Assembly (NCBI GenBank): GCA_020632575.1
Contig: JACKFH010000020.1
Span: 2,849-66,848, forward strand
Direction: 5' to 3'
From: Candidatus Omnitrophota bacterium
GTDB taxonomy: Bacteria > Hinthialibacterota > Hinthialibacteria > OLB16
Length of the DNA: 64,000 nucleotides
Shown one piece after another: positions 1,008-36,030 of the stretch; within the stretch, counting starts at the first letter, position 1, and each line of letters starts with the position of its first letter. A model generated the notes under the pieces. The model was not told where the DNA came from. It saw nothing but the letters and a program-made list of their open reading frames with translations, and did not search any database. A program made the translations under genes and the position numbers.

Positions 1008-2915
1008 TTAGTAGAGATTCCAGTTCCAGACCGCCAAACTCCCACCATCGAGGAGGAATTCGATTCCCACAGTCTCCTGACTGACATTCACTGTGACCGG
1101 TGTCGCGGATCCGAGCGTGGTGGCGCCATCGTAGTATTCATCCATGTAACCGGAGGCATTTAGCGGATCCGCACGGATGATGTATTGCCCTGGCGGGAGT
1201 GGCCCCAATATAAATTGTCCAGCCAAATCGCTTCTAGCATCGATTGCGACCGGGGTTCCATCGGTGAGAAAAACATCGAGATCGATATCCGGGAGCGGTT
1301 GATTGTTCTGGGCCGCGCGTATTGTTCCCGAAATCGTACCACCAGCCTCCAGGCTGAAATCCACATCAGAGGTGGTTGAATTCGCACTTACCACGATCAA
1401 ATCCGCGGAGGCAAAAGTGGATCTCAGATTGAAGTATTGATCCACATATCCCTGCGCGGGTGTGGAATCCGCTTGGACCACCCAGTTTCCTGGCGCGATC
1501 GGTCCCAACCGGTAATACCCCGTCGAGGAGGAGACCGCGTCAACTGCTGAGATGAATGTTCCTGTTTCGGAAAATAGGTCGAGATCGATCCCTGGGAGAG
1601 GAGTTCCTCCCGATTGGGCAAGAACGAACCCTTCGATATATCCACCAGCGTCGAGGGTGAAGTCGATATTCATCGTTTCCATCCCTGTTGTAACCGACAC
1701 CAAAGTTGCCTGATCGCGAAGGGGCGTGCTGTTATAAAACTCAGTCGCCAAACCGAGCGCAGGTGCGGGATCAGCCCGGACTGTGTAATCACCCGCGGGC
1801 AAACCTCCCAATCGGTAGAAACCGACCGCGTCCGACTTAGCCGTGATTGGTAGGCGGTTGCCAAGCGAGTCATAAACATCCAGATCAATACCCGCGACTG
1901 GCATGGCGGTTCCGCTGTCAGTGATGGTCCCGGTGATCGTTCCCCCCAAGGGGACAGCGATATCGATAAGAGTGGTAACCATTCCCGCCGAAACAGAGAA
2001 GGGAGTCGCATCTGCCTGGAAAAGGACACTTGGATAGTAAGTCCTGACATACCCGGTCAGCGGATCGGGATCGACTCGGACTACGTATGACCCGGGGGGA
2101 ACCGCGCCGATCTCATAATAGCCTGTTGCGGAGGTCACCGCTCCGAATCGAACGAAGGATCCCGCGCTAGTGAAGAGGTCCAGGTCGAATCCCGCAAGGG
2201 GGAGACCCGACCCCTGCTCGGTGACCACTCCGGACAAAACGCCTCCCTGCTGAACTTGAAAATCGATCCCGGTCAGATTGCCTGATCCGGTAATCTGGAT
2301 CGGAGTTCCAGTCGCGACTGAGTTCCCGTTTAAATAGAATCTCTCCACCAGAAACTGGAAGGAATCAGGGTCGGCTCGAAGGAAATAAGTGCCCACCGGA
2401 AGCGAGCCAAGGAGATAGTTCCCCGTCCCGTCGGTCCTGTCGTTGACCGAACTAATGAGTTCCCCATTGGAGGCGAACAGGTCCAAATCGACATTGGTGG
2501 CCACGCTTCCCACACCCTCAATGGTAATCTGGCCCTGAATGCTGAATCCCGGATCGAGTGAGAAATCGACAATGACATCGCCGACAGAAGGAACAACCAC
2601 CGGTGTCGCTTGAGACTTCAGAAAAACTCCTCCGCTGTATTGGTCCACATACCCATCGGCTGCGCTGGGGTCGGCGCGCACATAGTAATTACCCGCGGGG
2701 AGTCCGGAAAACGTATAGTTTCCGGCGCCGTCAGTGGAGGCGTTAAGTGCGACACTGTTGAAATTGGAATCGAAAAGATCGAGGTCGATTCCAGATAATG
2801 GCGTCGACCCGACTGATTCGGTAATGGTTCCTAAGATGTTTCCGGCATAAGCAGTTGATCCCCATAAAATGATGGTGACCAAATAGAAAATACGGAATGG
2901 GCGATAATGATTCAC
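1008..2915 (-). CDS. Secreted protein with six ~100-aa carboxypeptidase-regulatory-like/Cna-B-type repeats and C-terminal AVWNWNLY tail
   Basis: Signal peptide; six repeats of G-x-I-x-G...DLD[LV][FY]...G-x-Y-x-[VL]-x-[AV]D. GTG start overlaps the TPR gene stop (GTGA). Confidence 0.88.
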   Translation of the reverse strand: MNHYRPFRIFYLVTIILWGSTAYAGNILGTITESVGSTPLSGIDLDLFDSNFNSVALNASTDGAGNYTFSGLPAGNYYVRADPSAADGYVDQYSGGVFLKSQATPVVVPSVGDVIVDFSLDPGFSIQGQITIEGVGSVATNVDLDLFASNGELISSVNDRTDGTGNYLLGSLPVGTYFLRADPDSFQFLVERFYLNGNSVATGTPIQITGSGNLTGIDFQVQQGGVLSGVVTEQGSGLPLAGFDLDLFTSAGSFVRFGAVTSATGYYEIGAVPPGSYVVRVDPDPLTGYVRTYYPSVLFQADATPFSVSAGMVTTLIDIAVPLGGTITGTITDSGTAMPVAGIDLDVYDSLGNRLPITAKSDAVGFYRLGGLPAGDYTVRADPAPALGLATEFYNSTPLRDQATLVSVTTGMETMNIDFTLDAGGYIEGFVLAQSGGTPLPGIDLDLFSETGTFISAVDAVSSSTGYYRLGPIAPGNWVVQADSTPAQGYVDQYFNLRSTFASADLIVVSANSTTSDVDFSLEAGGTISGTIRAAQNNQPLPDIDLDVFLTDGTPVAIDARSDLAGQFILGPLPPGQYIIRADPLNASGYMDEYYDGATTLGSATPVTVNVSQETVGIEFLLDGGSLAVWNWNLY

Positions 2916-6048: not shown

Positions 6049-6053
6049 TAGCG

Positions 6054-7676: not shown

Positions 7677-8047
7677 TTAACTGACTCCGGTGTTCAAGGT
7701 GAATCCTGATTCTCCGGATGGGATTCTCTTGAGCGGGAAAACTAGCAAAACAATACTTTCATCGCATCCGGAGAAACGATGGAATCAGAGGATTTCCTCA
7801 ACAAATTAAACAGAAGAGCCTGGTGAATAAACACACCTAGTCCAGTGGTTGAGAGTAAATCAGGCATCTCCAGGAGAGTAGGTGGCAATTGGCGAAGTTT
7901 TTTTTACAAGTTTTTATCCTAACCCTCCCGAAAACTCCTCCGAATTGCAAAAAGAGGATCTCGATTGTCGCTCTCAATTGACCGAATCAGGTTTCACTCC
8001 CCAGCATTTTCCGATCAAGAATGCCTCCTTCCACGTGGGGGAACCTA

Positions 8048-9111: not shown

Positions 9112-9114
9112 CGA

Positions 9115-10329: not shown

Positions 10330-10342
10330 TGGGCAGGCTCCT

Positions 10343-11290: not shown

Positions 11291-11322
11291 TGGAGAAGAC
11301 CTCCTGAAATCTGGGCGGCATG

Positions 11323-12237: not shown

Positions 12238-12343
12238 TCCCTAAACTATACTCCAGTGGCGTCTAGGCCGCAAGTCGCGCTCCAGGGGAAATGCGATAAT
12301 GGTCAGTCGGGAACTGAGATTCATGTCTCTGAATGCTCCCTAA

Positions 12344-22300: not shown

Positions 22301-22741
22301 GATCGGCGGAAAACTGGGGTTGAACTCTTGTCCGATTGTCACCCCATCGGGCATCACCAGAGCGAGATACTCTCCTTCGCTTTTCAATTTAAAATTCGTA
22401 TGGAGTTCATTCCCCGGTGTCGCACGATTCTTGTCCGACGTGAAGACAACAAGATAGGAATCAGCCGCGATCGTTTCGGCGGGAAATCGCCATTTCACTA
22501 GATCCACTTGGCTATCGGTCATAAACCATCCGTCCAGATCGATGGATCCCGGGCCGGGATTATAGATCTCCACCCAATCAGGGTAGTCTCCATCCTCATC
22601 GGCTAGGGTCGCGGAGTTGGAAGCCATAATCTCATTGATCACGGGCGTCGATGCCTGAACATCGGGGTAACGGCAAGTAACCGCGAGAGCAATCGATATT
22701 GACAGAAGAGCAAGTGGGGAATAGTGCAATCGAATATTCAT
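19301..22741 (-). CDS. Secreted multidomain protein: lamin-tail domain, CotH kinase domain, beta-sandwich/CBM-like domain, second LTD, SVSNWFLY tail
   Basis: PVINEIMASN...DWVEIYN (LTD); IRRRGEST, GLFVLREKIK, GPPWDFDRSF (CotH); WKYLYDGSDQGTAWR; IIISEFLAN...EWFEIYN. Confidence 0.9.
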   Translation of the reverse strand: MNIRLHYSPLALLSISIALAVTCRYPDVQASTPVINEIMASNSATLADEDGDYPDWVEIYNPGPGSIDLDGWFMTDSQVDLVKWRFPAETIAADSYLVVFTSDKNRATPGNELHTNFKLKSEGEYLALVMPDGVTIGQEFNPSFPPIGTDLTYGLAMGLYELLETPTPGAANSAGIGPFLGVVARPDVSVKGGCYVDAVDVILTCETAGAVIRYTTDGTVPSLVNGTDYSSPIHIESLTTLLATGFRTDYEPSDTRIETYVFIDPSVASFNSNLPIIVLDTLGEDLPNLNDDPDLDPYIDCRIVIIDTDAQSGRAEITGPEHFEGWGEIRRRGESTYGQGHYALEIQDEHRQDNETPLLGMPAESDWIVSFDVIDYSLLKNEIAFKWFRDMGHYAPRQRYAEVYLNTDGGDIAPNDYKGLFVLREKIKRDNNRVDVAKLDPTDNQKPEISGGYIIKSDKLDPGDTLLDGLETGPYGIHTAGAGKPILAEPSPSDVTDQQIDWIESHINEFHAVLWQNTGSAYYPGAGPKYSDYVDVESWIDHGFVEQIGLDNDAFWGSYFAHKDRNGKIHSGPPWDFDRSFHNNAGDYDKPYDIWKLNGEIFGKWHQRLQEYLEYKMALADRWFGHRENALNTARTLAYIDEKAALMSEAMSRPQTKFYPNPFPTEVDLFKTWIANRLDWLDGEIANRFAERPPIFNPPAGPVDPGESLEISKPSGVLGTIYYTLDGSDPRLQGGAINPNAITYDPSGGPITESIVQMSDSIWKYLYDGSDQGTAWRAYDFDDSSWGSGPSQLGFGEGDETTNIGPRVIGQRTAYFRHKFTVSQVSEIIDLSIDLVHDDGAVVYINGQEVDRIFMPDGPINFETRANIQGENSNTTFSGISPTFLNEGDNIVTVEIHQIADTSSDISFDLNLEATRPNADPQIVFTQNTIVRARTKNGNNWSAQNEKLFQIQTAQPGEIIISEFLANANGDDAGKEWFEIYNTTESGIDINGWEIRDNESDSHTIDNGGPLIIPGDSHAVLAESGDMNLNGGISPDYVYGTDITLGNGGDEIILINAGVVIHSIGYENYEASGITIVTPVTLAATPGRGIGMSEGYCEGPVTTWTYQTSAFGSNLDTGTPGSVNDGVSVCPAPNPGPSSVSNWFLY

Positions 22742-22806
22742 GATTTAAATGTTCAGTGAAATTCTTCCAATAATGGCTCTTGAACCGGTCATCGTTTTTG
22801 TGTCAG

Positions 22807-24795: not shown

Positions 24796-24872
24796 GGATT
24801 CTGTGTTTTAATCAAAGTCGACCACTTTATTGGGCATTGGATCGGCACTTCCATCCTCGTGCCGGAATATGA

Positions 24873-26501
24873 TTAGGCCACTGGCCGCAATTTGATGCTC
24901 TTCAAATTCGGGTCTTCCACTTTCGCCATCCAGTCAACAAGCATCGACTTGAGTCGTTCTGCTTGGGTTTTGTATTCAAGTCGTTTCGGGTTGCGACCAA
25001 TGAGGTTGTCGATTTCGAGCGGATCTGATTCCAAGTCGTAGAGTCCGTCGAGCGATGGCATGTCCGCAGTGCGGCCAAACATGAGTTTCCAACGGCCATC
25101 GTAGACCATGTAGCCGGGAACCGCGCTTTGCTCCCACTCGCCAATCACATAATCGCGAGTCGCTTTTGGATCATCCACCAAGGAGCGCAAACTCTCTCCG
25201 TCAGTGGAGACAGGTGGCGCCTCCAGGTAATCAAGGATAGTGGCGTGCAAGTCAAGCAAACTGACCGGAGTATCAACGACACGTCCCGCGGGGATTTTGC
25301 CAGGCAGCCTCATGAGAAGTGGAATATGGGCCGACTCCTCATAGAACATGTTCTTCTCACGAAAGCCATGGGCTCCCAACATTTCACCGTGATCCGAGGT
25401 GAATATAACCAAGGTGTTGTCCGCCTCACCGATGGCCTCGAGTTTTTGGAGAATCTTGCCAATCCAATCATCGATCTCTCGAATCAGTCCGAAATAGTTT
25501 GACATCATATAACGAATTAATTTGGGATCGCTGTATTCGGGCGCCTGGTGATGTTTCGCTGAATCCTTGTAGGGAGAGTTCTCTTTAGAATCATTGAGGC
25601 TCTTCGATGGTCGCATCTCCTCCAATGGGTGCATCCCGTGGTAGGGCTTTGTGGGCGTCATCGGCGCATGGGGCAGATGAAAACTGCAAGTAATGGAGAA
25701 AGGTTTTCCTTTGGCTCGCTCTAGCGCATCGATCGTTTCCTTCGCTTGTTGCGCGGTGATGGAGAACTCCGCAGGGATATCCAGACGTCCATGGATATCC
25801 GGTTGAATGGGTTTGACCCTCTCACCCTTGGAATTCAAATAATATTCGGAAGGGGCCATGCCGTGACGCTTGTCGATGGGATCGGTCTTGTAAGGCCGAG
25901 CACTGTAAGTGTCGATCTGTTCACCCGGTTCGGCCTTCCTTCGGGGCACTTGATTCCGCTCTAAGAAATCCAAAAAATGCGTGCGCATCCCGGGCCCGAG
26001 AACTGTCCGCCCTTGTCCCGCAACAGTGACAGGATTCTTGTAGCATTTTGCTCGCATCTCGGGCGTGTGCCACTTCCCGAAAAACTCGGCATGGTAGCCA
26101 TGGTCGCTGAGGATTTCGTCATACGTGCGCAAATCACGGATCGGCGAGTTGGGTCCATGGGCAACGTCGTAAGCCTCTCGGTTGGAGGGGGTCGCCGTGT
26201 GCGAAAAGGCGCATCCGGTCAACAAACTTGTTCGAGCCGGACCACAGACGGCGCAATGGGTGTAGGCTTTGGTAAATCGAACGCCTTCCTTTGCAATACG
26301 ATCCATGTTTGGGGTCTGAAGCGGGGAGGAGCCGGCGCAACTCATGGCATCGAAACGCTGCTGGTCCGTGATGATGAAAAGCAGATTGGTTTTCCTGCCA
26401 GCCGGATTCGATAAAGCGGCGGTCGAAGAAAGGAGAGATGCACCCAGGCCGGCGCCGACGCTGTGTCGAATGAAGTTCCTACGATTGAGTTTGTCGGTCA
26501 T
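24873..26501 (-). CDS. Tat-exported sulfatase (S1 family)
   Basis: MTDKLNRRNFIRH twin-arginine leader; IITDQQRFD, CGPAR (CxPxR), FTSDHGEMLGAHG. The ORF-track extension overlaps lacI. Confidence 0.93.
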   Translation of the reverse strand: MTDKLNRRNFIRHSVGAGLGASLLSSTAALSNPAGRKTNLLFIITDQQRFDAMSCAGSSPLQTPNMDRIAKEGVRFTKAYTHCAVCGPARTSLLTGCAFSHTATPSNREAYDVAHGPNSPIRDLRTYDEILSDHGYHAEFFGKWHTPEMRAKCYKNPVTVAGQGRTVLGPGMRTHFLDFLERNQVPRRKAEPGEQIDTYSARPYKTDPIDKRHGMAPSEYYLNSKGERVKPIQPDIHGRLDIPAEFSITAQQAKETIDALERAKGKPFSITCSFHLPHAPMTPTKPYHGMHPLEEMRPSKSLNDSKENSPYKDSAKHHQAPEYSDPKLIRYMMSNYFGLIREIDDWIGKILQKLEAIGEADNTLVIFTSDHGEMLGAHGFREKNMFYEESAHIPLLMRLPGKIPAGRVVDTPVSLLDLHATILDYLEAPPVSTDGESLRSLVDDPKATRDYVIGEWEQSAVPGYMVYDGRWKLMFGRTADMPSLDGLYDLESDPLEIDNLIGRNPKRLEYKTQAERLKSMLVDWMAKVEDPNLKSIKLRPVA

Positions 26502-26562
26502 TCCATCCTTGCCTCTTCGATTATTACCGTGTTTTGTATGGATGCACTTTGGAACCGTGATT

Positions 26563-27588
26563 TCATTTTTGCTCGGGTCGTGGAGGTCCTGAAGATTCAC
26601 GGCGGATGAAGGTTTGTGGAATGTGATGACCGATTGGCGGCGCCTCGGGATCCTTGATCCGCTCTCTCAATGTTTCGAAAGCCAGCCGCGCCACCTCAGC
26701 ATTGTTCGGCACGCTTGTGGTCAAAGAGGGACGAATGAGTTCTGTCCAGAAATCGTCCTCAAAACTGACCATGGAAACGTCACGCGGGATTTCTATACCG
26801 ACTTCTTCAAGAGGGCGATAGAGCCTCAACGCAACACCATTGTTCATGGTTATGAGTGCAGTCGGTGCATCAGGATACTTGAACCACGAACAGACTTCCG
26901 GGATCCAATCTTCTTTCTCCCCATCCGCCCTGCGCAGTATTTTTGCAGCCTCTGGCGATTCCCGTTCCAGAACGCGTGTGACGCCTTCAAGTCGCTGCTC
27001 CGTACAACGGTTTCCTGGAAGCACTCCCACCACGCCAATCCGGCGATGTCCCAATTCAAGGAGATGTCGCGCAAGCACGCCGGATGATTCAATTTCTTCA
27101 CTTGTCACATAGTCGAAGTTATAGCCTCCGCTTTCACCCAATAGAACGAATGGCACTTTTCGGAGTTGCAGGTCGAGGAAATGACGATGTCCAGCAGAAC
27201 TATGATCGTCGGCGACCGGAAAGATGAGAAGACCATCGGCCCGATGTTCCAACATCGCTTTGATATGTTGTTTCTCGAGTTTAACATTCTCCTCGGAGTC
27301 CGCGATAAGCACCTGATAACCTTGGGCGCGACAGGAAGATTCGATACGGTGGAAAAAATCGATATAAGCCGGATTGCTGAGAGATGACACGATGTAGCCC
27401 AGCATGTGTTGCTTTTTCATCACGAGATTGCGGGCCAAAATGTTCGGACTATAACCAAACTGTTCTGCAAGTTTTTTTATGTCGGCTCGTCGCTTTTCAC
27501 TTACGCCCGGTTTGTTGTTAAGGACGCGGGAGACGGTGGCCACCGAAGTATTCGCAATTCGCGCAAGTTCTTCTATTGTTATGGACAA
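26563..27588 (-). CDS. LacI family transcriptional regulator
   Basis: TIEELARIANTSVATVSRVLNNKPGVSE HTH, hinge YSPNILARNL, periplasmic-binding-protein-like core, FIRREST-type end. Confidence 0.95.
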   Translation of the reverse strand: MSITIEELARIANTSVATVSRVLNNKPGVSEKRRADIKKLAEQFGYSPNILARNLVMKKQHMLGYIVSSLSNPAYIDFFHRIESSCRAQGYQVLIADSEENVKLEKQHIKAMLEHRADGLLIFPVADDHSSAGHRHFLDLQLRKVPFVLLGESGGYNFDYVTSEEIESSGVLARHLLELGHRRIGVVGVLPGNRCTEQRLEGVTRVLERESPEAAKILRRADGEKEDWIPEVCSWFKYPDAPTALITMNNGVALRLYRPLEEVGIEIPRDVSMVSFEDDFWTELIRPSLTTSVPNNAEVARLAFETLRERIKDPEAPPIGHHIPQTFIRRESSGPPRPEQK

Positions 27589-27607
27589 AGCTTTCCTCCA
27601 GATAAGG

Positions 27608-30430
27608 TCATAATGTCAGACGCAATGTTGAGATCTTGTTGGGACCCACATCAAGGGGAATTTCACCACCCTCGATTTCAATTTTACTCTCCAACTTTTC
27701 GTTTAAGTTAATCAATTCCGCTTTGGAAAACACCGCCTTCATCCGCAGTCTTCCAACGATCGATTGATTGGTAGGATTAAAAACCCTGGCGACTATGGCG
27801 GGGCCATCTTCTTCCTGTTTTAGGGCGCTTAGAACGAGTTCAGTCGGTTCAATTTCTAATAAACTCTCAACCAACCCTAAGGAACCTCCCTCGCCCCGAC
27901 CACACTGAATGGGGCGCACCGGAACGTTGAATCGTTGCGACTCCACAAAAACTCCACCTTCGTTCCAGTCTCCCGAATGAGGATATAGCGAAAAACGAAA
28001 GTCTTGCGGGCCCTGGCATTGCCCCCCCTTTTGCTTTGGATATTCCACTCCACGCGTATTTCCACTGCAAATCCAGTTCCGGACCGAACGTAGTAGTGTT
28101 ATCGCTATCGTGCGTTGAGGGTTATCCATCACCTCAAACTCGCACAGACCGTCATTGATGACGGCTAACCCATGATCACCATCCGACACATCCACGAAGG
28201 ATTGCATGGGTAATGTCTGCATGTTTTCCCAGTACCGGCCTTCGCCGAGGAATTTTTCTCGAGGCGAGATGGGACGCTCGTCGACACAGAAGTGGCCTTC
28301 GGCGCAGGAATGGGTGGCGAGTGAGATTCCAGAAGGAAAGAGCGCACGCAACCGGTGGTCTTCGATGTTATTATTGAATTGGACCCTGAGTTCAACCGAT
28401 TTCGCGCCTTTTCGCAAAGTCATGTAAGACCGAATCAGCAGATCACGGTTCGCATCGTCACGGGCCGATTTGTCCTTCAGCGCCCGCGCCGGCAGGGTCA
28501 TCGTGACTTCCGAAACGAATGTCGTTGACAAAGGACCATGCTCCTCAATCCAAGTTCGGACAGGACAGGTCTTGCTTTGGAATGTCTGGTTATTGAGGGG
28601 TTCTTGACGCACCCAATAGGTGCCCACGTCGCCACTATCCTCGTAAGAGAGCTGGTTCGGATATTCCCGGTTTGTGATCTTATTCAGAAGGTTGAACGTT
28701 CCATCAGCGTTCAGCGAAAATCTGAGAAACTCGTTTTCCATGACATCCGGCCCCTTCAGGAGGCTGCCCTCGATGGCTTCTGGCAAAGGCCATATGTCCA
28801 GTTTTTTTTCCTTCCGCGGGCACTTGCCAATACGGAGCGTTTTAAATCCTCCGGCAGGGACCTCGCCTGTTTCGAGAAAGAAAGTATGACGGGTGGAGGC
28901 GAATGCACGGGGCCGAGCATTTTTATCACATTCCATTGGCATTGCCTCTTCAATCGAAAGGCGCTGAACAGGCATCCGTCGACCATTCTCTTCAACCGTG
29001 ATAGCCGTGATTTCTTGTTCCGCTGGGGTGTCGGCAATCACCTTAATGATTTCCGACCGCGGGAAGGGCAAGGGATTGAATAGGACCAGGAAAACGTCTT
29101 CGGGGGAAGTCTCGCCAAAGTCGATCATTTTTAGGAATTCCACTGTGGCTGCATTCTCAACCACCTTGCTCAGTTCCTCTGCCTGATCGAGACGGTACAT
29201 GACATCGTTCGCGGTCTTATCCTGGGTTACACCGTTGATCGAGTCGTGCGGTTGGGACTTGAGGAGATAGTCCCAGGCCAAATCGAGGTAGGCTCTGGGA
29301 TAAGGCGCTCCTTGCGAATAAGCCAGGGCCGCAAGAGGTTCCGCCCGCTGAATCAAGCGATGCTGAACACGGCGATTTTTGTGCTTGATATAGGAGCGGG
29401 TGGCTAAGGCGTTGCAGGTTGTTTTCTCCACGGGGCCATCCCGCAGCTCGCCCTTCACCACCTTCAAATCATTGATGTTGACACCTTCTTTAAGAGCCTC
29501 CATAAACTCGGGCAATGAGCTATGCCTGAATTGACGAGATTCGTCGAGGCGATTGGCTTCTTCAATGATTTTCAAGACTGTGGGCTGTGGATAAATGAAG
29601 TCGCAACCGTCACCCATGAATCGATGGCTGGGAACAAGCGTCTCCTCTGTCGTATCCCAAGCATCCTCGAGAGCCTTCCTGAGCTTTTCCGCGTGGAATC
29701 CGTCACATGAATCGACACGAAAGTAGTCCAATTCCTGGCCTTCTTCATCTGCGGGTCGATAGGGCAGACCGCCCAGGTTCCACCGAAATGTCCAGTCATT
29801 GGGGACAATGTCCTCGCCAAAACAGACTGGAATAACACAAGTGAAGAAAAAGTTTTGACGGCCGAACATAATGCCCAACCGCGTCGTCAGTGCTTGGGTT
29901 CCATCCGGCGCTTCCCACAAAAATTCAGAATGGGGGGCCCGCTCGGAGTTTACCGTTTTACCAAAGAGAATCGTGTCGATTCCGAACCCGGCGTAAATCT
30001 GTGGCAACTGTGCCGTTTGGCCCCATCCGAAAACGGTATATCCGACGGTGAGAGTTCCCCCGTAACTATTTGCGACTCGAATTCCCTTGAGCAGATTCCG
30101 GACGAGACATTCGCCACTAACCGGGTGTTCGTCCGGAAGCGTGTACCAGGGCCCAATAAAGAGTCGACCATCCCGTACAGCCGTTTCGATCCGTGTGCGG
30201 TTTTCAGGTCGAATTTGCAGGTAATCCTCAATTGGCACCGCTTGGCCATCCATGAGGAAGGCGCGATAGGACGGATCGCGGTCGAATATTTCCAGAAGCA
30301 TATCCAGACACCCCACCAGCATTTCACGTGTCTGCCAAATTGGATACCGCCATTCCCTGTCCCAGTGAGTGTGTGTGATGACATGTGCAGTTTGGGTTGT
30401 GGTCGATTCGAGCATGCGATTTTCCATCAA
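27608..30430 (-). CDS. GH38 alpha-mannosidase
   Basis: THTHWDREW, FLMDGQ, IGPWYTLPDE, DVFGW-like segment, QPHDSING, ITLLRSV. Confidence 0.93.
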   Translation of the reverse strand: MMENRMLESTTTQTAHVITHTHWDREWRYPIWQTREMLVGCLDMLLEIFDRDPSYRAFLMDGQAVPIEDYLQIRPENRTRIETAVRDGRLFIGPWYTLPDEHPVSGECLVRNLLKGIRVANSYGGTLTVGYTVFGWGQTAQLPQIYAGFGIDTILFGKTVNSERAPHSEFLWEAPDGTQALTTRLGIMFGRQNFFFTCVIPVCFGEDIVPNDWTFRWNLGGLPYRPADEEGQELDYFRVDSCDGFHAEKLRKALEDAWDTTEETLVPSHRFMGDGCDFIYPQPTVLKIIEEANRLDESRQFRHSSLPEFMEALKEGVNINDLKVVKGELRDGPVEKTTCNALATRSYIKHKNRRVQHRLIQRAEPLAALAYSQGAPYPRAYLDLAWDYLLKSQPHDSINGVTQDKTANDVMYRLDQAEELSKVVENAATVEFLKMIDFGETSPEDVFLVLFNPLPFPRSEIIKVIADTPAEQEITAITVEENGRRMPVQRLSIEEAMPMECDKNARPRAFASTRHTFFLETGEVPAGGFKTLRIGKCPRKEKKLDIWPLPEAIEGSLLKGPDVMENEFLRFSLNADGTFNLLNKITNREYPNQLSYEDSGDVGTYWVRQEPLNNQTFQSKTCPVRTWIEEHGPLSTTFVSEVTMTLPARALKDKSARDDANRDLLIRSYMTLRKGAKSVELRVQFNNNIEDHRLRALFPSGISLATHSCAEGHFCVDERPISPREKFLGEGRYWENMQTLPMQSFVDVSDGDHGLAVINDGLCEFEVMDNPQRTIAITLLRSVRNWICSGNTRGVEYPKQKGGQCQGPQDFRFSLYPHSGDWNEGGVFVESQRFNVPVRPIQCGRGEGGSLGLVESLLEIEPTELVLSALKQEEDGPAIVARVFNPTNQSIVGRLRMKAVFSKAELINLNEKLESKIEIEGGEIPLDVGPNKISTLRLTL

Positions 30431-30484
30431 AGTGGGGCGGTTATTAACGCATCAAGAAGAGATGATAGCATGAAAAATGAGTAA

Positions 30485-30498
30485 CGCAAAGGTTTACA
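30485..30498. promoter_or_regulatory. Putative LacI operator 1, upstream of GH38
   Basis: CGCAAAGGTTTACA; its reverse complement shares a 16-mer (GTAAACCTTTGCGTTA) with site 5. Confidence 0.7.
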
Positions 30499-30595
30499 TT
30501 CAGGATTCATAGATAGTCAATTTTCGTCTCTCTTGATCCACATTGCAAGCGTCTTATCGCTTAAAATCCATCTCTCCAAAATCCTAGATTTAAAG

Positions 30596-30609
30596 AGTAA
30601 ACGTTTGCG
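30596..30609. promoter_or_regulatory. Putative LacI operator 2
   Basis: AGTAAACGTTTGCG. Confidence 0.7.
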
Positions 30610-30780
30610 TACTTTCAGCGTTGAGGCAATTCCTGAATGGCTTGCATGAAAATCAACTACCTTATCCCCTGTCTTGGGGAGATCATCAGAATTGCTCCGG
30701 GTTGATATCGAAACCATCTCAAGTTTTGGAGATGGGAGTGACATGCCCAAGCACTAACTAGAACTTTCCCGGTAACCTCT

Positions 30781-30806
30781 CCCCCCCCTCGAATCGAGGG
30801 TGGGGG
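30781..30806. terminator. GC-rich hairpin downstream of the GH71/99-like gene
   Basis: CCCCCCCCTC-GAATC-GAGGGTGGGGG; near-identical hairpin at 33089. No clear U-tract. Confidence 0.5.
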
Positions 30807-30840
30807 AATATCAATTGAGAGTTGTCCCACGCGCCACGGG

Positions 30841-32961
30841 TCAATAAAGCTGCCAGTTGGAAACTGATAGAGGTCCGGGCGTTGGAGTGGGAGTCGGCGC
30901 TGGTGGATCATTTGGATCGATGGGTATTGTGGAGGTGAGTGGAATTTCACCTCGAAGCATTTGGGTTCCAGCACCCACAAGACGAAGATACCAGTCATTT
31001 GGCAATTCTTCATAGGAGATCCAGTTGTCGGTCACCGGATGGTTATTGGTCACCTTGAAGATGGCGGTTGATTCATCGACTTCATCGAACATCGCAACGA
31101 AGATCATATTGACGCCAACGTCCTGAACGGCATGAAGCTGGTCCCAAATGAATTGACCGTCCTGTCGGGAGATGAGGGAAGTCCCAGGGGCCAGATTCAT
31201 GAGATTGTCCCAGCTGAACCCTGGCCACACGACGGGCAAATAATCGATGTTTAATGAGGTCGTCTCGGCCACATCGGGTATCCACACATTATTCTTGATG
31301 TTATTCATTCCCGTGGTATCGGAAAATCGACCCACCATCCAGGGATTGATCATGTCCCAGCTCCGATAAATTGTGGCCCATCCCGGATCGGACTCTGAGT
31401 CCGCGGTAAGAGTCCTCCAACGAGAAGGGACTCCACCGACCAGAAAATTTCCTCCATAAGTGGGATCGTTCCGGAAGAAATCGATGACCGCGGCGGCCGT
31501 GGCGGTGGTGTGACCGCGACCGTTAAAGCCCAACCCCCAGATCTCAACAACCGGCTTGCCGTCATGGTACAGGTAGCGGGGGTCATTGGTGATATCGTAA
31601 GTGTCGACGAGGTATTTCCAATCGTCGGTGAGTTTCTGCAACATATTGCTGTCGGACATTCCACTTGTGTCATATTCGAGAGCGAACACTCGACCGTGAG
31701 CGTTTGCGGAATCGCGGACATGTTCAAGGACTCTGTTGCGAATATTGAAGAAAGCCGGGTCTTGGACTTCGCCGATGAACCGCTGGAGAAATACCCCATC
31801 GATGCCATACTCTTCCATCCATCGGAAATGGACGTCGACCACCCCCGGCCTGAAGGAACTGAAGAGTTTTCCAGGAGAGCTATCCAAGAGGGTGACTCCC
31901 GGAACGGGGAAGAGATCCTCCTCCGCGTACTCGCTTACGTCCGGCCACATATCCACGCCGAACATGCCTGGCCCTATGGAATTTGAACCTTTCCCCCAGT
32001 GCCGCCAGCCAATCGCCGGGATGTTGCCATCGCCAGGAGCCATGAACCAACCCTGGTAGCCGCAGACGATTTTCGAATCCATCGTGTTCGCATCGACCAC
32101 CGCCACGGGGGTTGGTGTGGGACCCGGAGGAGTGGATGCGGTTACTATCGTTTGGTCGGTTCCCGTATTGTAAATGACATCGACATCCCCCACGATTCCA
32201 TTGCCAGCGAGATACCCAGCTGTGGAATAATCTCTCATCACCCCAACAAAATCTCCGGGAAGAGTGACTTGACCCGTTCCATTGATGTTGAGGAGAGAAC
32301 CGGGTTGGATAGAAGTTCCACTCGCGTGAATGTTGAACAAATTCAGAGCGCCGCCGTCGTTAACATTGACTGTGGCGACACCGCCCGATGGATTGACGGC
32401 GTCAATGGTGCCGAGACCAAGGATGCCTCCGGTCTGGTTGAGAGTTCCGTTAATGTTGACCGTTGCGACGCCGGCCGCTCCGGCGGAAAACCATAGGTGA
32501 CTGCCAACGTTGATAACCGCTCCGGCATCAATCGTTAGGTCACCGGTTACCTGAGCAGCGCTACCGTTACCGCCCACCCATAGAATATCGGCAACGTTGA
32601 TTATCGCGCCCGCCGCCACAGTCATCGTCCCGGCGGAATTGTTGTGTCCGACGTAGAGACGATTAAGGACGTTAAGAGTTCCTCCGGAACTGACTTCCAG
32701 ATTACTGTCCTCATCCTGACCGATGCGGACGTTCAGGACATCCGGAGCTGTACTGCCAAGAGTCACTGTGTTTCCGGCCCAATTCAAAATGGCGGTATCG
32801 CCTGAACTTGGAAGAACTCCACCCACCCAATTCGAGGCAGTTGTCCAAGAGCCGCTGCCCATATAGCGAATATCGGCGCAATTGGCTGAGCCGGCAATGC
32901 ATGCCAAAACAACCAATTTCAGGATCCCGGAGAAAGTGAAATTTCTGGTTATCATCTTCAT
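30841..32961 (-). CDS. Secreted protein: N-terminal IRYM..GxW repeat-family domain, GH71/GH99-like catalytic domain, PT linker, SVSNWQLY tail
   Basis: CGYQGWF, DMWPDVSEY, DGVFLQRF, EYDTSG, WMVGRF, VWPGFSWDN, AMFDEVDESTAIFK. In-frame alternative start at 33015. Confidence 0.85.
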   Translation of the reverse strand: MKMITRNFTFSGILKLVVLACIAGSANCADIRYMGSGSWTTASNWVGGVLPSSGDTAILNWAGNTVTLGSTAPDVLNVRIGQDEDSNLEVSSGGTLNVLNRLYVGHNNSAGTMTVAAGAIINVADILWVGGNGSAAQVTGDLTIDAGAVINVGSHLWFSAGAAGVATVNINGTLNQTGGILGLGTIDAVNPSGGVATVNVNDGGALNLFNIHASGTSIQPGSLLNINGTGQVTLPGDFVGVMRDYSTAGYLAGNGIVGDVDVIYNTGTDQTIVTASTPPGPTPTPVAVVDANTMDSKIVCGYQGWFMAPGDGNIPAIGWRHWGKGSNSIGPGMFGVDMWPDVSEYAEEDLFPVPGVTLLDSSPGKLFSSFRPGVVDVHFRWMEEYGIDGVFLQRFIGEVQDPAFFNIRNRVLEHVRDSANAHGRVFALEYDTSGMSDSNMLQKLTDDWKYLVDTYDITNDPRYLYHDGKPVVEIWGLGFNGRGHTTATAAAVIDFFRNDPTYGGNFLVGGVPSRWRTLTADSESDPGWATIYRSWDMINPWMVGRFSDTTGMNNIKNNVWIPDVAETTSLNIDYLPVVWPGFSWDNLMNLAPGTSLISRQDGQFIWDQLHAVQDVGVNMIFVAMFDEVDESTAIFKVTNNHPVTDNWISYEELPNDWYLRLVGAGTQMLRGEIPLTSTIPIDPNDPPAPTPTPTPGPLSVSNWQLY

Positions 32962-33088
32962 GATCTCGCTTTCTTGGTTGAATTCATTGGCAAGTGACGC
33001 AACCTCCAATACCAATGAACCTCTTTTCGGATGATTGACTTGGCGCCTACGATTATCGATTCAGAAGGGATCCCAGAAGGAAATTACC

Positions 33089-33115
33089 CCCCCACCCTCG
33101 AAAAGAGGGTGGGGG
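33089..33115. terminator. GC-rich hairpin between paralogous genes
   Basis: Perfect 11-bp stem CCCCCACCCTC-GAAAA-GAGGGTGGGGG. Confidence 0.55.
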
Positions 33116-33158
33116 ATCTGTTGTGTAGATCATTTAGCGCCCAAGGATGTAGCTGATT

Positions 33159-34781
33159 CTAATATAAACCCCAATCATTCACTGCTAGTGGAGCAACAAT
33201 GACCGTGGTAAATCCTGGATTTGACGTCAAATTTGTCTGGATGTTTCCGGGAACGCCATCACCGGCAATGTAGCCGTTGCTGGCATAGTCAGCAATAACG
33301 GCTTCGAAATCACCGGGAAGGGTGACCTGCCCGCTTCCATTTATGTTTAGGATTGACCCGGGCTGGATCGAGGTTCCGGCTGCATGGATATTAAATAAGT
33401 TTAGGACTCCCCCATCCTCAACGTTAAGGGTTGCCACTCCACCGGATGGATTAACCGCATCGATTGTGCCGAGCCCGAGGATACCCCCTGTTTGATTGAG
33501 AACTCCGCTGACATTTATTGTCGCGAGCCCCGCGGCGCCTGCGGCAGCCCAAAGATGATTGCTGAAGTTGACCTCGCCTCCGGCTTCAATGGTGAGCGTT
33601 CCAGTTACCGCTGCGGGACTCCCATTACCACCAACCCAGAGGATGTCGGTGACATTCACAACCGCTCCGTTGGCAACGAGCATTGTACCGGTTGAATTGT
33701 TATGGCCAACATAAAGGCGTTGCACGACGGTTAAGGATCCACCAGCGTTCACTTCGAGTGTGCTGTCCTCATCCTGACCGATTCTAACTTGATAAACATC
33801 GGGGGCCGCGCCATTCAATGTAACGGTGTTGTTTCCCCAATTGAGAATCGCGGTTTCCAATTCACAGGGAACATTCCCAGTCTGCCAATTGGAGGCGGTC
33901 AACCAATCACCGCTGTTCATATACCGAACGTTGCCTGCCATACAAACCGGAGCAGCCTGAACGACGGTGACCGTCGTGAAACCTGGATTAGTTGTGAGAT
34001 CCGCCTGAACATTTCCAACCACACCATCGCCGGCGAAATAACCGTTGCCCGCGTAGGTCCCAATCACACTGACAAAATCGCCCGGAATGGTCACCTGGCC
34101 GCTTCCGAAGATGTTGATAATCGAACCGGGTTGAATCGAACCTCCACTTCCCGAAATGTTGTTCAGAGCCAGAACACCGCCATCATTGACGTTAACGGTG
34201 GCAACACCCCCTGATGGGTTGGATGCATCGATCGTCCCGAGACCGAGGATACCTCCGGTTTGGTTGAGATTTCCGCTGATGTTGACCGTCGCGACTCCAG
34301 CAGCTCCGGCCGACCACCATAGATGGTTTCCGACGTTGACAATTCCACCCGCCTCGATCGTCAGCGTTCCGGTTACCGCTTGGGGGCTCCCATTCCCACC
34401 AACCCAAAGAATGTCAGTGACATTCACAACCGCTCCACTGGCGACCGTCATGGTCCCCGTGGAGTTGTTGTGCCCCACATAGAGGCGGTTTAGCACATTG
34501 AGGGTCCCGCCCGCGTTGACCTGAAGGTTACTGTTTTCGTCCTGTCCAATCCGAACATCTAGGACATCGGGAGCCTGAGCCGCCAGTGTAACCGTGTTGC
34601 CCCCCCAGTTAAGAATGGCCCTATCCATGTCACCGGGGATCGCACCCCCCACCCAACCGGATGCCGTGTTCCAGTCGCCGTTCGACATATACCGAATGTC
34701 CGCCGCGTCTGTGTGACTGGCGAGACAAGCCAGCAATGTCAATGAAATACAAGTCGAAATAAGAAAATTCCTGCTCCACAT
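33159..34781 (-). CDS. Secreted protein of two tandem IRYM..GxW domains with AVNDWGLY tail
   Basis: Signal peptide; units start IRYMSNGDW and VRYMNSGDW; each contains GGILGLGTIDAxNPSGGVAT. Confidence 0.88.
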   Translation of the reverse strand: MWSRNFLISTCISLTLLACLASHTDAADIRYMSNGDWNTASGWVGGAIPGDMDRAILNWGGNTVTLAAQAPDVLDVRIGQDENSNLQVNAGGTLNVLNRLYVGHNNSTGTMTVASGAVVNVTDILWVGGNGSPQAVTGTLTIEAGGIVNVGNHLWWSAGAAGVATVNISGNLNQTGGILGLGTIDASNPSGGVATVNVNDGGVLALNNISGSGGSIQPGSIINIFGSGQVTIPGDFVSVIGTYAGNGYFAGDGVVGNVQADLTTNPGFTTVTVVQAAPVCMAGNVRYMNSGDWLTASNWQTGNVPCELETAILNWGNNTVTLNGAAPDVYQVRIGQDEDSTLEVNAGGSLTVVQRLYVGHNNSTGTMLVANGAVVNVTDILWVGGNGSPAAVTGTLTIEAGGEVNFSNHLWAAAGAAGLATINVSGVLNQTGGILGLGTIDAVNPSGGVATLNVEDGGVLNLFNIHAAGTSIQPGSILNINGSGQVTLPGDFEAVIADYASNGYIAGDGVPGNIQTNLTSNPGFTTVIVAPLAVNDWGLY

Positions 34782-34855
34782 ATCCACAACCTCACTTTCT
34801 TTTGGACCGATTTTCTCCTATTCGTTCCGGAATAAATTCGGAAATGACCACAGAG

Positions 34856-34869
34856 AGTAAACGTTTACT
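34856..34869. promoter_or_regulatory. Putative LacI operator 3 (perfect palindrome)
   Basis: AGTAAACGTTTACT, just downstream of a minus-strand TTGAAA-N16-TAGAAT promoter. Confidence 0.85.
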
Positions 34870-34964
34870 AATCAATTCTAGCAGAACGGAACTCGATTTC
34901 AAGCGTTTTTTTCCTTTTTAGCACAATTCTCTGAACAATTCCGCATTTCTCCGGACCTTATGAA

Positions 34965-34978
34965 CGTAAACCTTTTCA
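34965..34978. promoter_or_regulatory. Putative LacI operator 4 (weak/auxiliary)
   Basis: CGTAAACCTTTTCA. Confidence 0.5.
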
Positions 34979-35160
34979 TATCACGCCCTTGCGGTGGCGG
35001 ACTTAATGGATCAAGTGCCTGCTTCCTTCTCCGCCACCCGGCCAAGGATCGGCCTCCCATCCTTGAAGTGATACGGGCATGGGAAGGATTTCCTTGAGAG
35101 GAAATCGCCCACTAAACCCACTCGCCTTCTAGAAAACAAGCCAAAAGTGGCGACACGCCT

Positions 35161-36030
35161 TTACCGATACAATCCCCACTCCGATACAGAGGAAGATGGA
35201 GAAGGCGGGGGCGCGACCACGACGGTGGTCTCATCGGCGCCAAGGTCATATGATACGGCTACGTTTCCGACAACGTCGTCACCGGATATGAACCCGGCCG
35301 CCGCGTAAGATTCCATAACTCCAACAAAGTCCCCGGGGAGAGTCACGCGGCCGCTTCCGTAGATATTCAGCATGGAACCAGGCTGAATCGAAGTCCCGGC
35401 CGCATGAATATTGTTCAACGCGAGAAGGCCGCCATCATTGACATTCAGCGTTGCGGTTCCACCCGATGGGTCCACCGCGTTAATCGTCCCGAGACCCAAG
35501 ATTCCATCGACGTTTCCGGTTTGGATAATGGCTCCTCCGCTGTTGATATTAACGACGCAGGAACCGGTGGAATCCGGGCCAAACCATAGGTGACTGAAGA
35601 CATTGATGACTGCCCCATCGTTCACATCGATAGTTCCGAAGGAACCCATTCGACCCGCCCAAAGTATCCGGCCCACGTTGACGACCGCGCCGCTGTTGAC
35701 CGTTAACGTTCCAGTGACCGAACCGTTGTTGCCAGCGGTCACATCCTGAAATGCTGAGAGCACGCCTCCATCTTCGATCACTAGGTTGCCGGATTCATCC
35801 ACACCGATCTGGACACGGTTCACCAGCGGCGCCTCGTAATCCAATGTCACCGTGTTGTTGGCCCAGTTGATTCGAGCGGTATCGAATTCACCGGGAATCG
35901 CACCACCGACCCAGTTTGCAGCTTCGCTCCAAGGCCCATCGCCCATATATCGTATATTCTGGGCCTTGGCCGGACTTCCCGCGTATAGCAACGCGATCAC
36001 CACGATCCATCCAAATCTTCCTAAAATCAC
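35161..36030 (-). CDS. Secreted single IRYM..GxW-domain protein with SVSEWGLYR tail
   Basis: Signal peptide; IRYMGDGPWSEAANWVGGAIPG; GILGLGTINAVDPSGG; Pro/Ser linker. Confidence 0.88.
   Translation of the reverse strand: MILGRFGWIVVIALLYAGSPAKAQNIRYMGDGPWSEAANWVGGAIPGEFDTARINWANNTVTLDYEAPLVNRVQIGVDESGNLVIEDGGVLSAFQDVTAGNNGSVTGTLTVNSGAVVNVGRILWAGRMGSFGTIDVNDGAVINVFSHLWFGPDSTGSCVVNINSGGAIIQTGNVDGILGLGTINAVDPSGGTATLNVNDGGLLALNNIHAAGTSIQPGSMLNIYGSGRVTLPGDFVGVMESYAAAGFISGDDVVGNVAVSYDLGADETTVVVAPPPSPSSSVSEWGLYR

Follow-up and report, generated by a model that had tools for sequence, protein, structure and literature searches.

Analysis of a 64,000-nucleotide stretch of DNA (the window) from a Candidatus Omnitrophota bacterium of the Hinthialibacterota lineage OLB16 has revealed five exported proteins that end in the same short tail, [SA]-V-x-[NDE]-W-x-L-Y(-R), and about 25 such proteins have been identified in the source genome. 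The tag is terminal, modular and conserved at the protein level. It is practically certain that this W-x-L-Y tag is real, and an address or docking function for it is probable. The preferred reading, to which a probability of roughly 40% is assigned, is that the tail acts as a non-covalent export or docking handle, probably read by a pseudopilin or type II secretion (T2SS)-like system; the genes encoding tail proteins are linked with pseudopilin genes.

The five open reading frames (ORFs) for which a first-pass annotation of the window had proposed a common C-terminal tail are all confirmed on the minus strand at the coordinates of Table 1, begin with signal-peptide-like N-termini and, when translated, do share this ending; no further ORF of the window contig (C33) has it. 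The same annotation was right to regard the passengers as members of unrelated families. According to Pfam, the 1008-2915 product carries six CarboxypepD_reg (transthyretin-like) repeats and the 19301-22741 product combines LTD, CotH and CHB_HEX_C/Fn3_assoc domains, while the products of 30841-33015, 33159-34787 and 35161-36030 are three paralogues with a beta-helix N-domain containing T5SS/PEP-CTERM-associated repeats. The 30841-33015 product additionally has a weak GH99-like C-domain and a PT linker upstream of the tail, and the true start of its gene is probably an ATG near 32955-32961. In the AlphaFold2 model of the 35161-36030 product (mean pLDDT 92) the beta-helix extends to about residue 272 and is followed by a coil linker, after which residues 283-288 form a detached short helix with a pLDDT of about 57. 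A GspG-like pseudopilin gene is divergent from this last tail gene across a gap of 408 nt; its product, which begins as a prepilin (FTLIELLIVIAIILIL) and whose globular part has YSPTNGTRSYGDI at its end, belongs to a hyper-expanded pseudopilin family. Conserved synteny of this particular pair was rejected, since two close orthologues of the pseudopilin, in two relatives, have no adjoining tail genes.

Table 1. Tail genes, tail codons and the pseudopilin gene of the window (positions of the whole stretch)
Feature	Coordinates	Strand	Description	Basis
Tail gene	1008-2915	minus	635 aa exported protein; C-terminus ...GGSLAVWNWNLY	translation, Pfam
Tail AVWNWNLY of 1008-2915 gene	codons 1011-1034; stop codon 1008-1010	minus		
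Tail gene	19301-22741	minus	1146 aa exported protein; C-terminus ...PGPSSVSNWFLY	translation, Pfam
Tail SVSNWFLY of 19301-22741 gene	codons 19304-19327	minus		
Tail gene	30841-33015	minus	exported protein; C-terminus ...PGPLSVSNWQLY	translation, Pfam, database cluster P0002 (704 aa)
Tail SVSNWQLY of 30841-33015 gene	codons 30844-30867	minus		
Tail gene	33159-34787	minus	exported beta-helix, ~540 aa; C-terminus ...APLAVNDWGLY	translation, NCBIfam
Tail AVNDWGLY of 33159-34787 gene	codons 33162-33185	minus		
Tail gene	35161-36030	minus	exported beta-helix paralogue, 289 aa; C-terminus ...SSSVSEWGLYR	translation
Tail SVSEWGLY of 35161-36030 gene	codons 35167-35190; extra Arg codon 35164-35166 after it	minus		
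GspG-like pseudopilin gene	36439-37203	plus	GspG/PilA N-terminal matches in NCBIfam; N_methyl only in Pfam	NCBIfam, Pfam

The tail is not restricted to these five genes, as a regex search over the proteome has demonstrated. In the source genome, represented by a rough, greedy set of 4167 non-overlapping ORFs obtained without a gene caller (1.69 million residues), the pattern [SAD][VAIN]..W.[LIVM]Y has 20 C-terminal matches, 0-1 extra residue being allowed, versus 5 internal ones; about 0.03 terminal cases would be expected, and the C-terminal enrichment is about 800-fold. A position profile of 76 tails from five genomes, in which Trp was fixed by the selection regex, revealed the following features: (i) Val in 92%, D/E/N in 72%, L/I/V in 95% and Tyr in 96% of the tails; (ii) the consensus [P/G/T]-[S/T/A]-[A/S]-V-x-[D/E/N]-W-x-[L/I/V]-Y-COOH; (iii) an end exactly at Tyr in 87%, with one extra, charged residue after Tyr in 13%, which makes a strict free-carboxylate reader unlikely; (iv) in most cases, a distance of 5-10 residues from the last strand of the folded domain. 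A strongly P/T/S-rich stretch precedes just 4 of the 76 tails, and the Pro/Ser/Thr linker described in the first-pass annotation, common in the window, is therefore not a general feature. Synonymous codons vary freely at the conserved positions (Val GTT/GTC/GTG/GTA = 25/17/14/7; Tyr TAT/TAC = 37/27), which places the conservation at the protein level and led to the rejection of a conserved DNA element at the gene ends; all three stop codons are used. The tag is confined to signal-peptide proteins, 64 of the 76 passing a crude test, and, in agreement with the link to export proposed for it, was not found on cytoplasmic proteins. Most of the remaining 12 have a visible signal peptide or are cut off at a contig end. 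The passengers include CarboxypepD_reg, CotH/LTD, beta-helix, GSDH propeller, discoidin and FG-GAP domains, and two more were judged subtilase-like from sequence alone.

The C-termini of the five window proteins gave no match to Pfam or, at E<=1, to NCBIfam. No characterised CTERM model of these collections covers the tail, and the first-pass opinion that it is not an LPXTG, PEP-CTERM, GlyGly-CTERM or T9SS signal is upheld by the lack of a transmembrane (TM) segment, a basic cluster and a model match. Like PEP-CTERM (TIGR02595, PF07589), it is a C-terminal add-on of signal-peptide proteins that belong to numerous unrelated families, and is frequently preceded by a Pro/Thr spacer; unlike PEP-CTERM, it has no PEP motif, TM helix or Arg/Lys cluster and comprises 8 residues versus about 25, so that the tails, 8-9 residues long and matched by no model, do not qualify as exosortase substrates. 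Sequence reading and NCBIfam likewise revealed no tripartite organization of the LPXTG, GlyGly-CTERM or MYXO-CTERM type. The T9SS C-terminal domains (TIGR04183 / PF18962) are also located at the C-terminus, and serve as the signal by which exoenzymes cross the outer membrane and are attached to the surface; unlike the tail, however, they are 70-100 residues long and fold as a beta-sandwich, and the sole match to them was internal, at residues 127-183 of the 635-aa protein, where it overlaps a PPC domain. The WxL cell-wall-binding domain of Firmicutes (PF13731) is C-terminal, about 150-200 aa long and carries two WxL motifs; the 8-residue tail gave no Pfam match to it and resembles it in the letters W-x-L only. 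An analogy with a terminal beta-signal, also raised at the outset, fails. The beta-signal of outer-membrane proteins shares a terminal aromatic residue with the tail, but has hydrophobic residues at 0, -2, -4 and -6 in the last barrel strand, whereas those of the tail stand at 0, -1, -3 and -6, without alternation, on soluble domains, the modelled passenger being a soluble beta-helix from which the tail is detached. Dockerins (PF00404) and the single-repeat dockerin-like tails of the same genome are, like the tail, C-terminal modules of secreted enzymes that follow PT linkers. Dockerins, however, consist of Ca-binding F-hand repeats (D-x-N-x-D-G-x-V...DLL) of 25-70 residues and bind cohesins, and no such motif is present in the tail; the single-repeat class gives a weak Dockerin_1 match and the W-x-L-Y tail itself none.

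The address or docking role originally suggested receives direct comparative support from positional swaps between modules. In 75 of the best 120 database homologues of the 33159-34787 product, a PEP-CTERM is found at the same junction (...NPGFTTAYVAIPEP...RRR versus ...NPGFTTVIVAPLAVNDWGLY with the tail); these PEP-CTERM-bearing homologues are from planctomycetes (Pirellulales). In same-genome paralogues of 30-53% identity, half-dockerin-like tails take the place of the W-x-L-Y tail. The neighbour paralogue of the 1008-2915 product (53% identical; C33 1610-3805, extending left of the window, where it appears as ORF 1-957) has a dockerin-like C-terminus and not the W-x-L-Y tail. A paralogue of the 19301-22741 product on contig C28 (842 aa) ends in ...DVSNWWMYD. 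Since the tail takes the exact PEP-CTERM place in homologues and the half-dockerin place in paralogues, its behaviour is that of an address module that is portable and interchangeable with both. A decayed PEP-CTERM was rejected, because 16 intact, classical PEP-CTERM proteins form a separate class in the genome besides the tail proteins. The CotH orthologue at the syntenic locus of Bythopirellula was discarded as a comparison, its C-terminus being neither the tail nor PEP-CTERM.

The distribution of the tail was scored by a strict DNA pattern, which under-calls, versus a control pattern. All 35 species genomes of Hinthialibacterota (OLB16) are positive, with 309 tail-pattern matches versus 14 for the control. 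In Sumerlaeota 45 of 75 genomes are positive (matches not summed), and the metagenome-assembled genome (MAG) G039 of this phylum has 16 matches versus 1. The 121 genomes of Planctomycetota, with 16 matches versus 30 for the control, and 24 genomes of other phyla, with 0-1 matches each, are not above background. Sumerlaeota also possess an Arg-extended tail variant; G062, negative by the strict pattern, has ...DWALYR tails, and some genomes of this phylum are negative for both tail patterns. Among the phyla sampled, the tag is confined to these two. Literature searches on Hinthialibacterota, on Sumerlaeota with pseudopilin and on new C-terminal sorting signals yielded no account of it.

Pseudopilins are the sole recurrent family near 77 tail genes, with 22 genes within +-3 of 24 tail genes, while the next-best neighbour family touches at most 6. 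A pseudopilin gene is immediately adjacent to 28% of the tail genes, 12% of the half-dockerin genes, 2.3% of other signal-peptide-like genes (n=738) and none of the 16 PEP-CTERM genes; in a permutation test, 5 tail-pseudopilin adjacencies were observed versus 0.7 expected. Adjacent pairs are present in both phyla; 13 of 16 are co-directional, their two genes being -4 to 189 nt apart. About 70% of the tail genes are without a pseudopilin gene in their vicinity. Copies of the family, counted by a profile of the globular domain, number 76, 107 and 135 in three Hinthialibacterota genomes and 61 in Sumerlaeota G039, and every sampled tail-bearing genome also has this hyper-expanded GspG-like family (60-135 copies). 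The profile has matches in 75/75 Sumerlaeota genomes and none in the 121 Planctomycetota or the 24 genomes of other phyla; the co-distribution of tail and family in two phyla only may reflect a single common ancestry. The pseudopilins are also abundant in Sumerlaeota genomes with neither tail pattern, which indicates that the family is not dependent on the tail, and their presence in all 75 means that they do not discriminate tail-bearing from tail-free genomes. A contrast of tail presence and absence within Sumerlaeota therefore failed to point out a reader, pseudopilins being found in every genome and cohesin not tracking the tail. Part of the linkage may reflect the type of operon and not the tail, as the PEP-CTERM homologue of Rubripirellula also has a DUF1559-type pseudopilin gene at a distance of 0.5 kb. 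A natural pseudopilin-cargo fusion (Rosetta-stone) was rejected, the long ORFs being adjacent genes. The predicted structure of the pseudopilin globular part is of moderate quality (pLDDT 75.5), with no significant PDB match and no obvious groove, and does not allow a binding site to be proposed.

The first-pass annotation envisaged an undescribed machine as the reader of the tail. The pseudopilin linkage, the sole lead towards such a machine, points instead to a type II secretion or type IV filament system, which is favoured over a wholly unknown translocon or peptidase, and a pseudopilin or T2SS-like reader is proposed tentatively. In the proposed mechanism, the tail carriers would be exported by Sec to the periplasm, where the passenger would fold and the tail, held on a short spacer, would remain free and flexible at the end of the chain. 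The reader would bind the invariant Val/Trp/Tyr face non-covalently, directing the carrier out of the cell or onto its surface; we infer both the binding and its non-covalent nature. The likeliest reader would be a type II secretion-like or type IV filament system of the lineage-specific, hyper-expanded GspG-like pseudopilins, and the tail would then be a handle loading cargo on a pseudopilin or pseudopilus, for secretin passage or display. A further-reaching claim, considered rather unlikely, is that the tail represents the first linear, portable T2SS-like secretion signal, a universal handle joining dozens of different folded exoproteins to members of a cargo-adaptor pseudopilin family of 60-135 copies, which would take them through the secretin or present them on a pilus-like fibre.

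A related arrangement is known for TcpF of V. cholerae and CofJ of ETEC, whose disordered, portable and aromatic-dependent export signals bind a minor pilin (PMC10120004, PMC6048534), in each case the one at the tip, TcpB and CofB respectively (PMC10120004, PMC9565799, PMC6048534). The proposed likeness relates to a short disordered terminal peptide, a Sec-exported cargo and a key aromatic residue; in the AlphaFold2 model the tail and spacer are indeed detached and of low pLDDT. There are also differences, which relate to position and partner. The TcpF/CofJ signals are N-terminal, with one cargo per pilus, whereas the tag is strictly C-terminal and found on at least ~25 cargoes per genome. They bind a specialised minor pilin, whereas the tail is linked through its genes to GspG-like (major-pseudopilin-like) paralogues. 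As to gene organization, the cargo gene of the TcpF/CofJ type is encoded with the pilin genes; 28% of the tail genes adjoin a pseudopilin gene, versus a background of 2.3%, mostly in the same direction and with short gaps, and most do not adjoin one.

Other explanations of the tail have been considered. A periplasmic or outer-membrane sorting enzyme could cleave it or use its terminal Tyr, and so establish a covalent bond between the protein and a polymer or lipid of the surface. Such an enzyme would correspond to exosortase, PorU or sortase, but with a signal that does not span the membrane. This explanation accords with the PEP-CTERM position of the tail in homologues and its strictly terminal, strong conservation, and a lineage-restricted tail would suit a lineage-specific enzyme. 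To our knowledge, however, all known sortase-type signals require a TM helix and a basic cluster, by which the substrate is retained at the membrane, and both are missing from the tail; moreover, no recurrent peptidase or transpeptidase family adjoins the 77 tail genes, and the genome already has a separate PEP-CTERM system. Covalent sorting is regarded as unlikely. Somewhat less credit is given to docking of the tail on a cohesin-type or other scaffold, by which enzymes would be assembled on the surface, although some homologous passengers of the genome bear the tail and others a dockerin-like module of one repeat, and both tail classes are enriched beside pseudopilin genes. The tail lacks the Ca-binding F-hand, and its 8 residues compare with about 25-70 in dockerins. 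Within Sumerlaeota, furthermore, Pfam Cohesin is not distributed like the tail, being present in the tail-free G063-G067, G085 and G126-G129 and absent in the tail-bearing G104, G090, G062, G074 and G075, a test weakened by MAG incompleteness.

An equally improbable proposal dispenses with a protein reader: the Val/Trp/Leu/Tyr cluster would itself enter the outer-membrane interface or bind LPS or glycan, and thereby tether the enzymes to the cell or the substrate. Trp and Tyr are typical of membrane interfaces and carbohydrate stacking, the tail is modelled as a short detached amphipathic turn, and many passengers are carbohydrate-active or carbohydrate-binding. The conservation is nevertheless sharply position-specific (relative to Trp, a small residue stands at -4, Val at -3 and an acidic residue at -1), which favours a specific protein partner; one 8-residue peptide would also confer little membrane affinity, and the pseudopilin linkage would be left unexplained. 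Very improbable, finally, is a quality-control tag, on which a PDZ-type protease or chaperone (Prc/Ctp-, DegS-like or GspC-type PDZ) would time degradation or act as a checkpoint. Most tails do have a hydrophobic or aromatic free C-terminus resembling a PDZ ligand (87% end at Tyr), and a precedent exists in Vibrio, where the GspC-type PDZ domain helps select substrates (PMC12369372). However, 13% of the tails have an extra charged residue after Tyr, the conserved positions (-1, -3 and -6 from the end) do not match the PDZ registers (0, -2), and a degradation tag on dozens of exoenzymes in two phyla is hard to rationalise. No PDZ protein was identified in the pilus/T2SS clusters, which were inspected without a domain scan.

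The known C-terminal address signals either are tripartite and membrane-spanning, with cleavage by sortase-like enzymes, or consist of an entire folded domain (T9SS, dockerin). If the address role is true, an 8-residue tag without a TM segment would be a different solution to the addressing of exoproteins, and a phylum-wide one. The tail carriers include glycan- and protein-degrading exoenzymes, and the tail would provide a rule of exoproteome prediction for two uncultured polymer-degrading phyla, Hinthialibacterota and Sumerlaeota, whose habitats are wastewater reactors, lakes and sediments. The pseudopilin linkage offers a concrete hypothesis for T2SS-like substrate choice, a question open even in model bacteria. 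The tag is short enough to be of use as a secretion or display handle, provided that its reader is transplantable. Should reading of the tail by pseudopilins be true, an 8-residue peptide would permit a direct test of T2SS-type substrate recognition.

Five open reading frames of the window, listed in the first-pass annotation as ending in a common [SA]-V-x-[NDE]-W-x-L-Y tail, were found on the minus strand with the ends described there (see table). According to NCBIfam and Pfam scans, the passenger parts of these proteins are unrelated: one consists of six CarboxypepD_reg repeats, another combines LTD, CotH and CHB_HEX_C/Fn3_assoc domains, and three paralogues possess a common beta-helix N-terminal domain with T5SS/PEP-CTERM-associated repeats, with a weak GH99-like part additionally in one of the three. 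No NCBIfam or Pfam model covers the five C-termini, and the tail is in no described C-terminal signal family, as the annotation had proposed; the sole T9SS-tail match among the window proteins lies within the chain, where it overlaps a PPC domain. A literature search found no paper describing the tail. In the AlphaFold2 model of the 289-residue window protein (40-sequence alignment, mean pLDDT 92), a confident beta-helix extends to about residue 272 and is followed by coil and, at residues 283-288, a detached short helix with a pLDDT of about 57. The tail is thus predicted to be a free terminal peptide.

Tail proteins, putative partner genes and related loci. All five tail proteins have signal-peptide-like N-termini; C-termini are from translation. 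Positions without a contig or locus refer to the window
Feature	Position	Strand	Remarks
Tail protein 1	1008-2915	minus	...GGSLAVWNWNLY
Tail protein 2	19301-22741	minus	...PGPSSVSNWFLY
Tail protein 3	30841-33015	minus	...PGPLSVSNWQLY
Tail protein 4	33159-34787	minus	...APLAVNDWGLY
Tail protein 5	35161-36030	minus	...SSSVSEWGLYR
Pseudopilin	36439-37203	plus	65-76 more copies genome-wide
Pseudopilins, examples	contig C27: 31604, 32285, 34886; contig C109: 148952-156050		
Half-dockerin gene	contig C33: 1610-3805		N-terminal part lies in the window as ORF 1-957; 24 others elsewhere in the genome
Tail/half-dockerin pair	1008-2915		versus its 53%-identical neighbour
Tail/half-dockerin set	contig C67 (13096)		versus C76 (27217) and C1 (281079)
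Tail/half-dockerin pair	contig C51 (31500)		versus C51 (29060)
PEP-CTERM genes, examples	contigs C96 (2260-6249), C34 (16522-23460)		
Loci syntenic with the window	19301-36030		L145 (Bythopirellula goksoeyrii), L146 (B. polymerisocia); CotH-LTD/beta-helix/sulfatase
Arg-extended tails, Sumerlaeota	L085 (10061-11047, 11342-11866), L087 (4759-6342), L147 (3457-4701)		
Cohesin region, Sumerlaeota genome G068	C3:323001-324306		DWTLYR and stop 323896-323916; cohesin 324013-324306

The window spans positions 2849-66848 of contig C33. Its genome (5.55 Mb, 119 contigs, 55% GC, about 69% complete) was represented by a rough set of 4167 genes, taken as greedy non-overlapping ORFs without a gene caller. 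Across the 1.69 million residues of this set, [SAD][VAIN]..W.[LIVM]Y matches 20 C-termini (with 0-1 extra residue) versus five internal sites, a roughly 800-fold terminal enrichment. A DUF1501 protein ending in WELF was rejected as a false positive of the regular expression; its domain extends to the protein end. The annotated tail is thereby confirmed, and its reach grows to about 25 proteins (210-1150 residues) of the genome and to hundreds of proteins in the two phyla named below. A protein of 1490 residues (contig C87, from 802) ends in ...RELPFSVEFWSLYDSKLD, a perfect motif plus five further residues, which might be explained by a recent extension, by a shifted stop codon, or by a terminality that is not absolute.

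The pooled profile of 76 tails from five genomes, in which Trp is invariant by construction of the selection pattern, shows P/G/T at position -6 relative to Trp, S/T/A at -5 (79%), A/S at -4 (84%), V at -3 (92%), D/E/N at -1 (72%), S/E/Q among others at +1, L/I/V at +2 (95%) and Y at +3 (96%). The Tyr is the very last residue in 87% of tails, the others adding a single E, D, N, Q or R, and the motif usually lies 5-10 residues past the last strand of a domain. The Pro/Ser/Thr linker reported ahead of the tail is frequent in the window but rare overall (4 of the 76 tails). Since synonymous codons interchange freely at the conserved positions and the tails end in any of the three stop codons, selection acts on the peptide and not on a DNA element.

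The distribution was surveyed with a DNA pattern for [SA]-V-x-x-W-x-Φ-Y-stop, the reversed pattern serving as control. All 35 Hinthialibacterota species genomes match, with 1-24 occurrences each (309 matches versus 14 in the control). Among 25 genomes of other phyla, reached via RecA loci, 24 yielded 0-1 matches and the remaining one, the Sumerlaeota MAG G039, yielded 16. The pattern was found in 45 of 75 Sumerlaeota genomes, with up to 23 per genome, and in 121 Planctomycetota genomes at background level (16 matches versus 30 control). In some of the Sumerlaeota genomes scored "negative", the tail is present in an Arg-extended form (...DWALYR) missed by the strict pattern; in a further set neither form was found. 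Two candidate phyla thus share the tag, which is universal in Hinthialibacterota and patchy in Sumerlaeota. The Arg-extended ends (...[VD]DWALYR, ...SWQIYR, ...TDWNLYR) belong to a Sumerlaeota subgroup, and the S/A-V preceding them is less conserved.

The strongest evidence that the tail may be an address label is its interchange with two module types already accepted in surface sorting or docking. Among the 120 best database homologues of tail protein 4, 75 carry PEP-CTERM at the exact junction of the tail (...NPGFTTAYVAIPEPAALLLLGLSLGGILISKRR in a homologue versus ...NPGFTTVIVAPLAVNDWGLY in the window protein); these are mostly proteins of about 300 residues from Pirellulales, e.g. Bythopirellula, Rubripirellula and Botrimarina. 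Synteny between the Bythopirellula locus and the window comprises a CotH-LTD protein, the beta-helix protein and a sulfatase, and the Pirellulales loci contain CotH-LTD, VTC, DUF4956, the PEP-CTERM beta-helix protein, AP_endonuc_2 and sulfatase, which hints at a polymer-utilisation module that has been conserved and possibly transferred. Two other groups of homologues of the beta-helix protein have recurrent C-termini of their own, ...F-Y-R-T-V-S-P (P0017-P0021 and similar, about 800 residues) and ...V-F-F-R-V-E-R-x-x-x (P0005/P0033 and similar, about 370 residues); each may represent either another end motif specific to a lineage or simply the last strand of a domain.

Within the genome itself, paralogous passengers end in either the tail or a half-dockerin, a single-repeat module (...D-x-N-x-D-G-x-V-D-x-x-D-L-L-x-L-L-x-x-W-G...) present in about 25 secreted proteins, often preceded by long PT linkers and matched by Pfam Dockerin_1 over half its model only. 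Classical PEP-CTERM proteins number 16, are small (185-311 residues) and several form tandem arrays. Hence three C-terminal module types coexist: about 25 W-x-L-Y tails, 25 half-dockerins and 16 PEP-CTERM signals. In terms of these sequence comparisons, the tail is a well-supported candidate for a new sorting or docking tag on exported proteins.

Neighbours within three genes were clustered around 77 tail genes of the genome and of 40 fetched loci (two other Hinthialibacterota and three Sumerlaeota genomes). GspG-like pseudopilins stand out, with 22 genes near 24 tail genes; the runners-up (LacI regulators, ABC ATPases, SSS transporters and sulfatases) each neighbour at most six. In the genome of the window, a pseudopilin is immediately adjacent to 28% of tail genes (44% within three genes), 12% of half-dockerin genes (16%), 0 of 16 PEP-CTERM genes (6%) and 2.3% of 738 other signal-peptide-like genes (7%); a permutation test gave 5 adjacencies observed versus 0.7 expected. 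Of 16 adjacent pairs, 13 read in the same direction and are separated by -4 to 189 nt; either gene order occurs. Because the adjacent passengers differ in family, the linkage is not tied to one of them. The pairing recurs in Sumerlaeota, although two phyla represent few independent events. A module common to both comprises a tail protein of about 300 residues, whose N-terminal sequences are alike by eye (unaligned), and then a pseudopilin; at the two Sumerlaeota loci a ROK-kinase-like gene, assigned by motif only, comes next. The majority of tail genes lack such a neighbour, no tail gene adjoins two orthologues of the window pseudopilin, and in Rubripirellula the PEP-CTERM homologue likewise lies 0.5 kb from a DUF1559-type pseudopilin.

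The pseudopilins possess a canonical prepilin N-terminus (GFTLIELLIVIAIILILIAIALPNF) and a globular part with the motifs LTTPxAYxTxxPxDPF, GPD and YSPTNGTxSxGDI. Neither Pfam nor NCBIfam has a model for the globular part, and the PDB yielded no significant fold match. The profile of this part detects 76 copies in the genome of the window, 107 and 135 in the Hinthialibacterota genomes G012 and G003, and 61 in the Sumerlaeota genome G039; it matches all 75 Sumerlaeota genomes and none of 145 others (24 of other phyla, 121 Planctomycetota). Every sampled genome with the tail also has the family, which is abundant too in those Sumerlaeota genomes where no tail was detected. Walker-motif pattern and gene length alone identify at least five GspE/PilB-type and three PilT-type ATPases in the genome of the window, beside genes resembling platform and minor-pseudopilin genes in N-terminal motif and length.

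Judged by their signal peptides, the tail proteins are exported via Sec. In the one model, the passenger folds and leaves the tail as a flexible terminal peptide. A reader would then bind, non-covalently, the face made up of Val(-3), Trp and Tyr(+3) together with the small -4 and acidic -1 residues. Other readings are a sortase-like processing pathway acting on the tail, a reader-free aromatic anchor, a PDZ/protease tag, or a mini-dockerin for cohesin or another scaffold. The presence of cohesin, an alternative candidate reader, does not follow that of the tail among the Sumerlaeota genomes. In G068, DWTLYR and a stop lie just below a cohesin-containing ORF, a candidate for a cohesin protein ending in the Arg-variant tail.

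The putative reader belongs to the pseudopilin / type II secretion-like system, with a probability of about one in three; the tail would load cargo onto a pseudopilin, to be passed through the secretin or displayed on the surface. Among working systems, the nearest analogue is the export signal of TcpF/CofJ, which is disordered, portable and Tyr-dependent and binds the tip minor pilin of the type IVb pilus (PMC10120004, PMC6048534, PMC9565799). In contrast to that signal, the tail is C-terminal, serves many cargoes and is linked to partners of the GspG-like type, not to minor pilins. The tail has a realistic chance of being the first linear cargo signal of a type II secretion-like machine.
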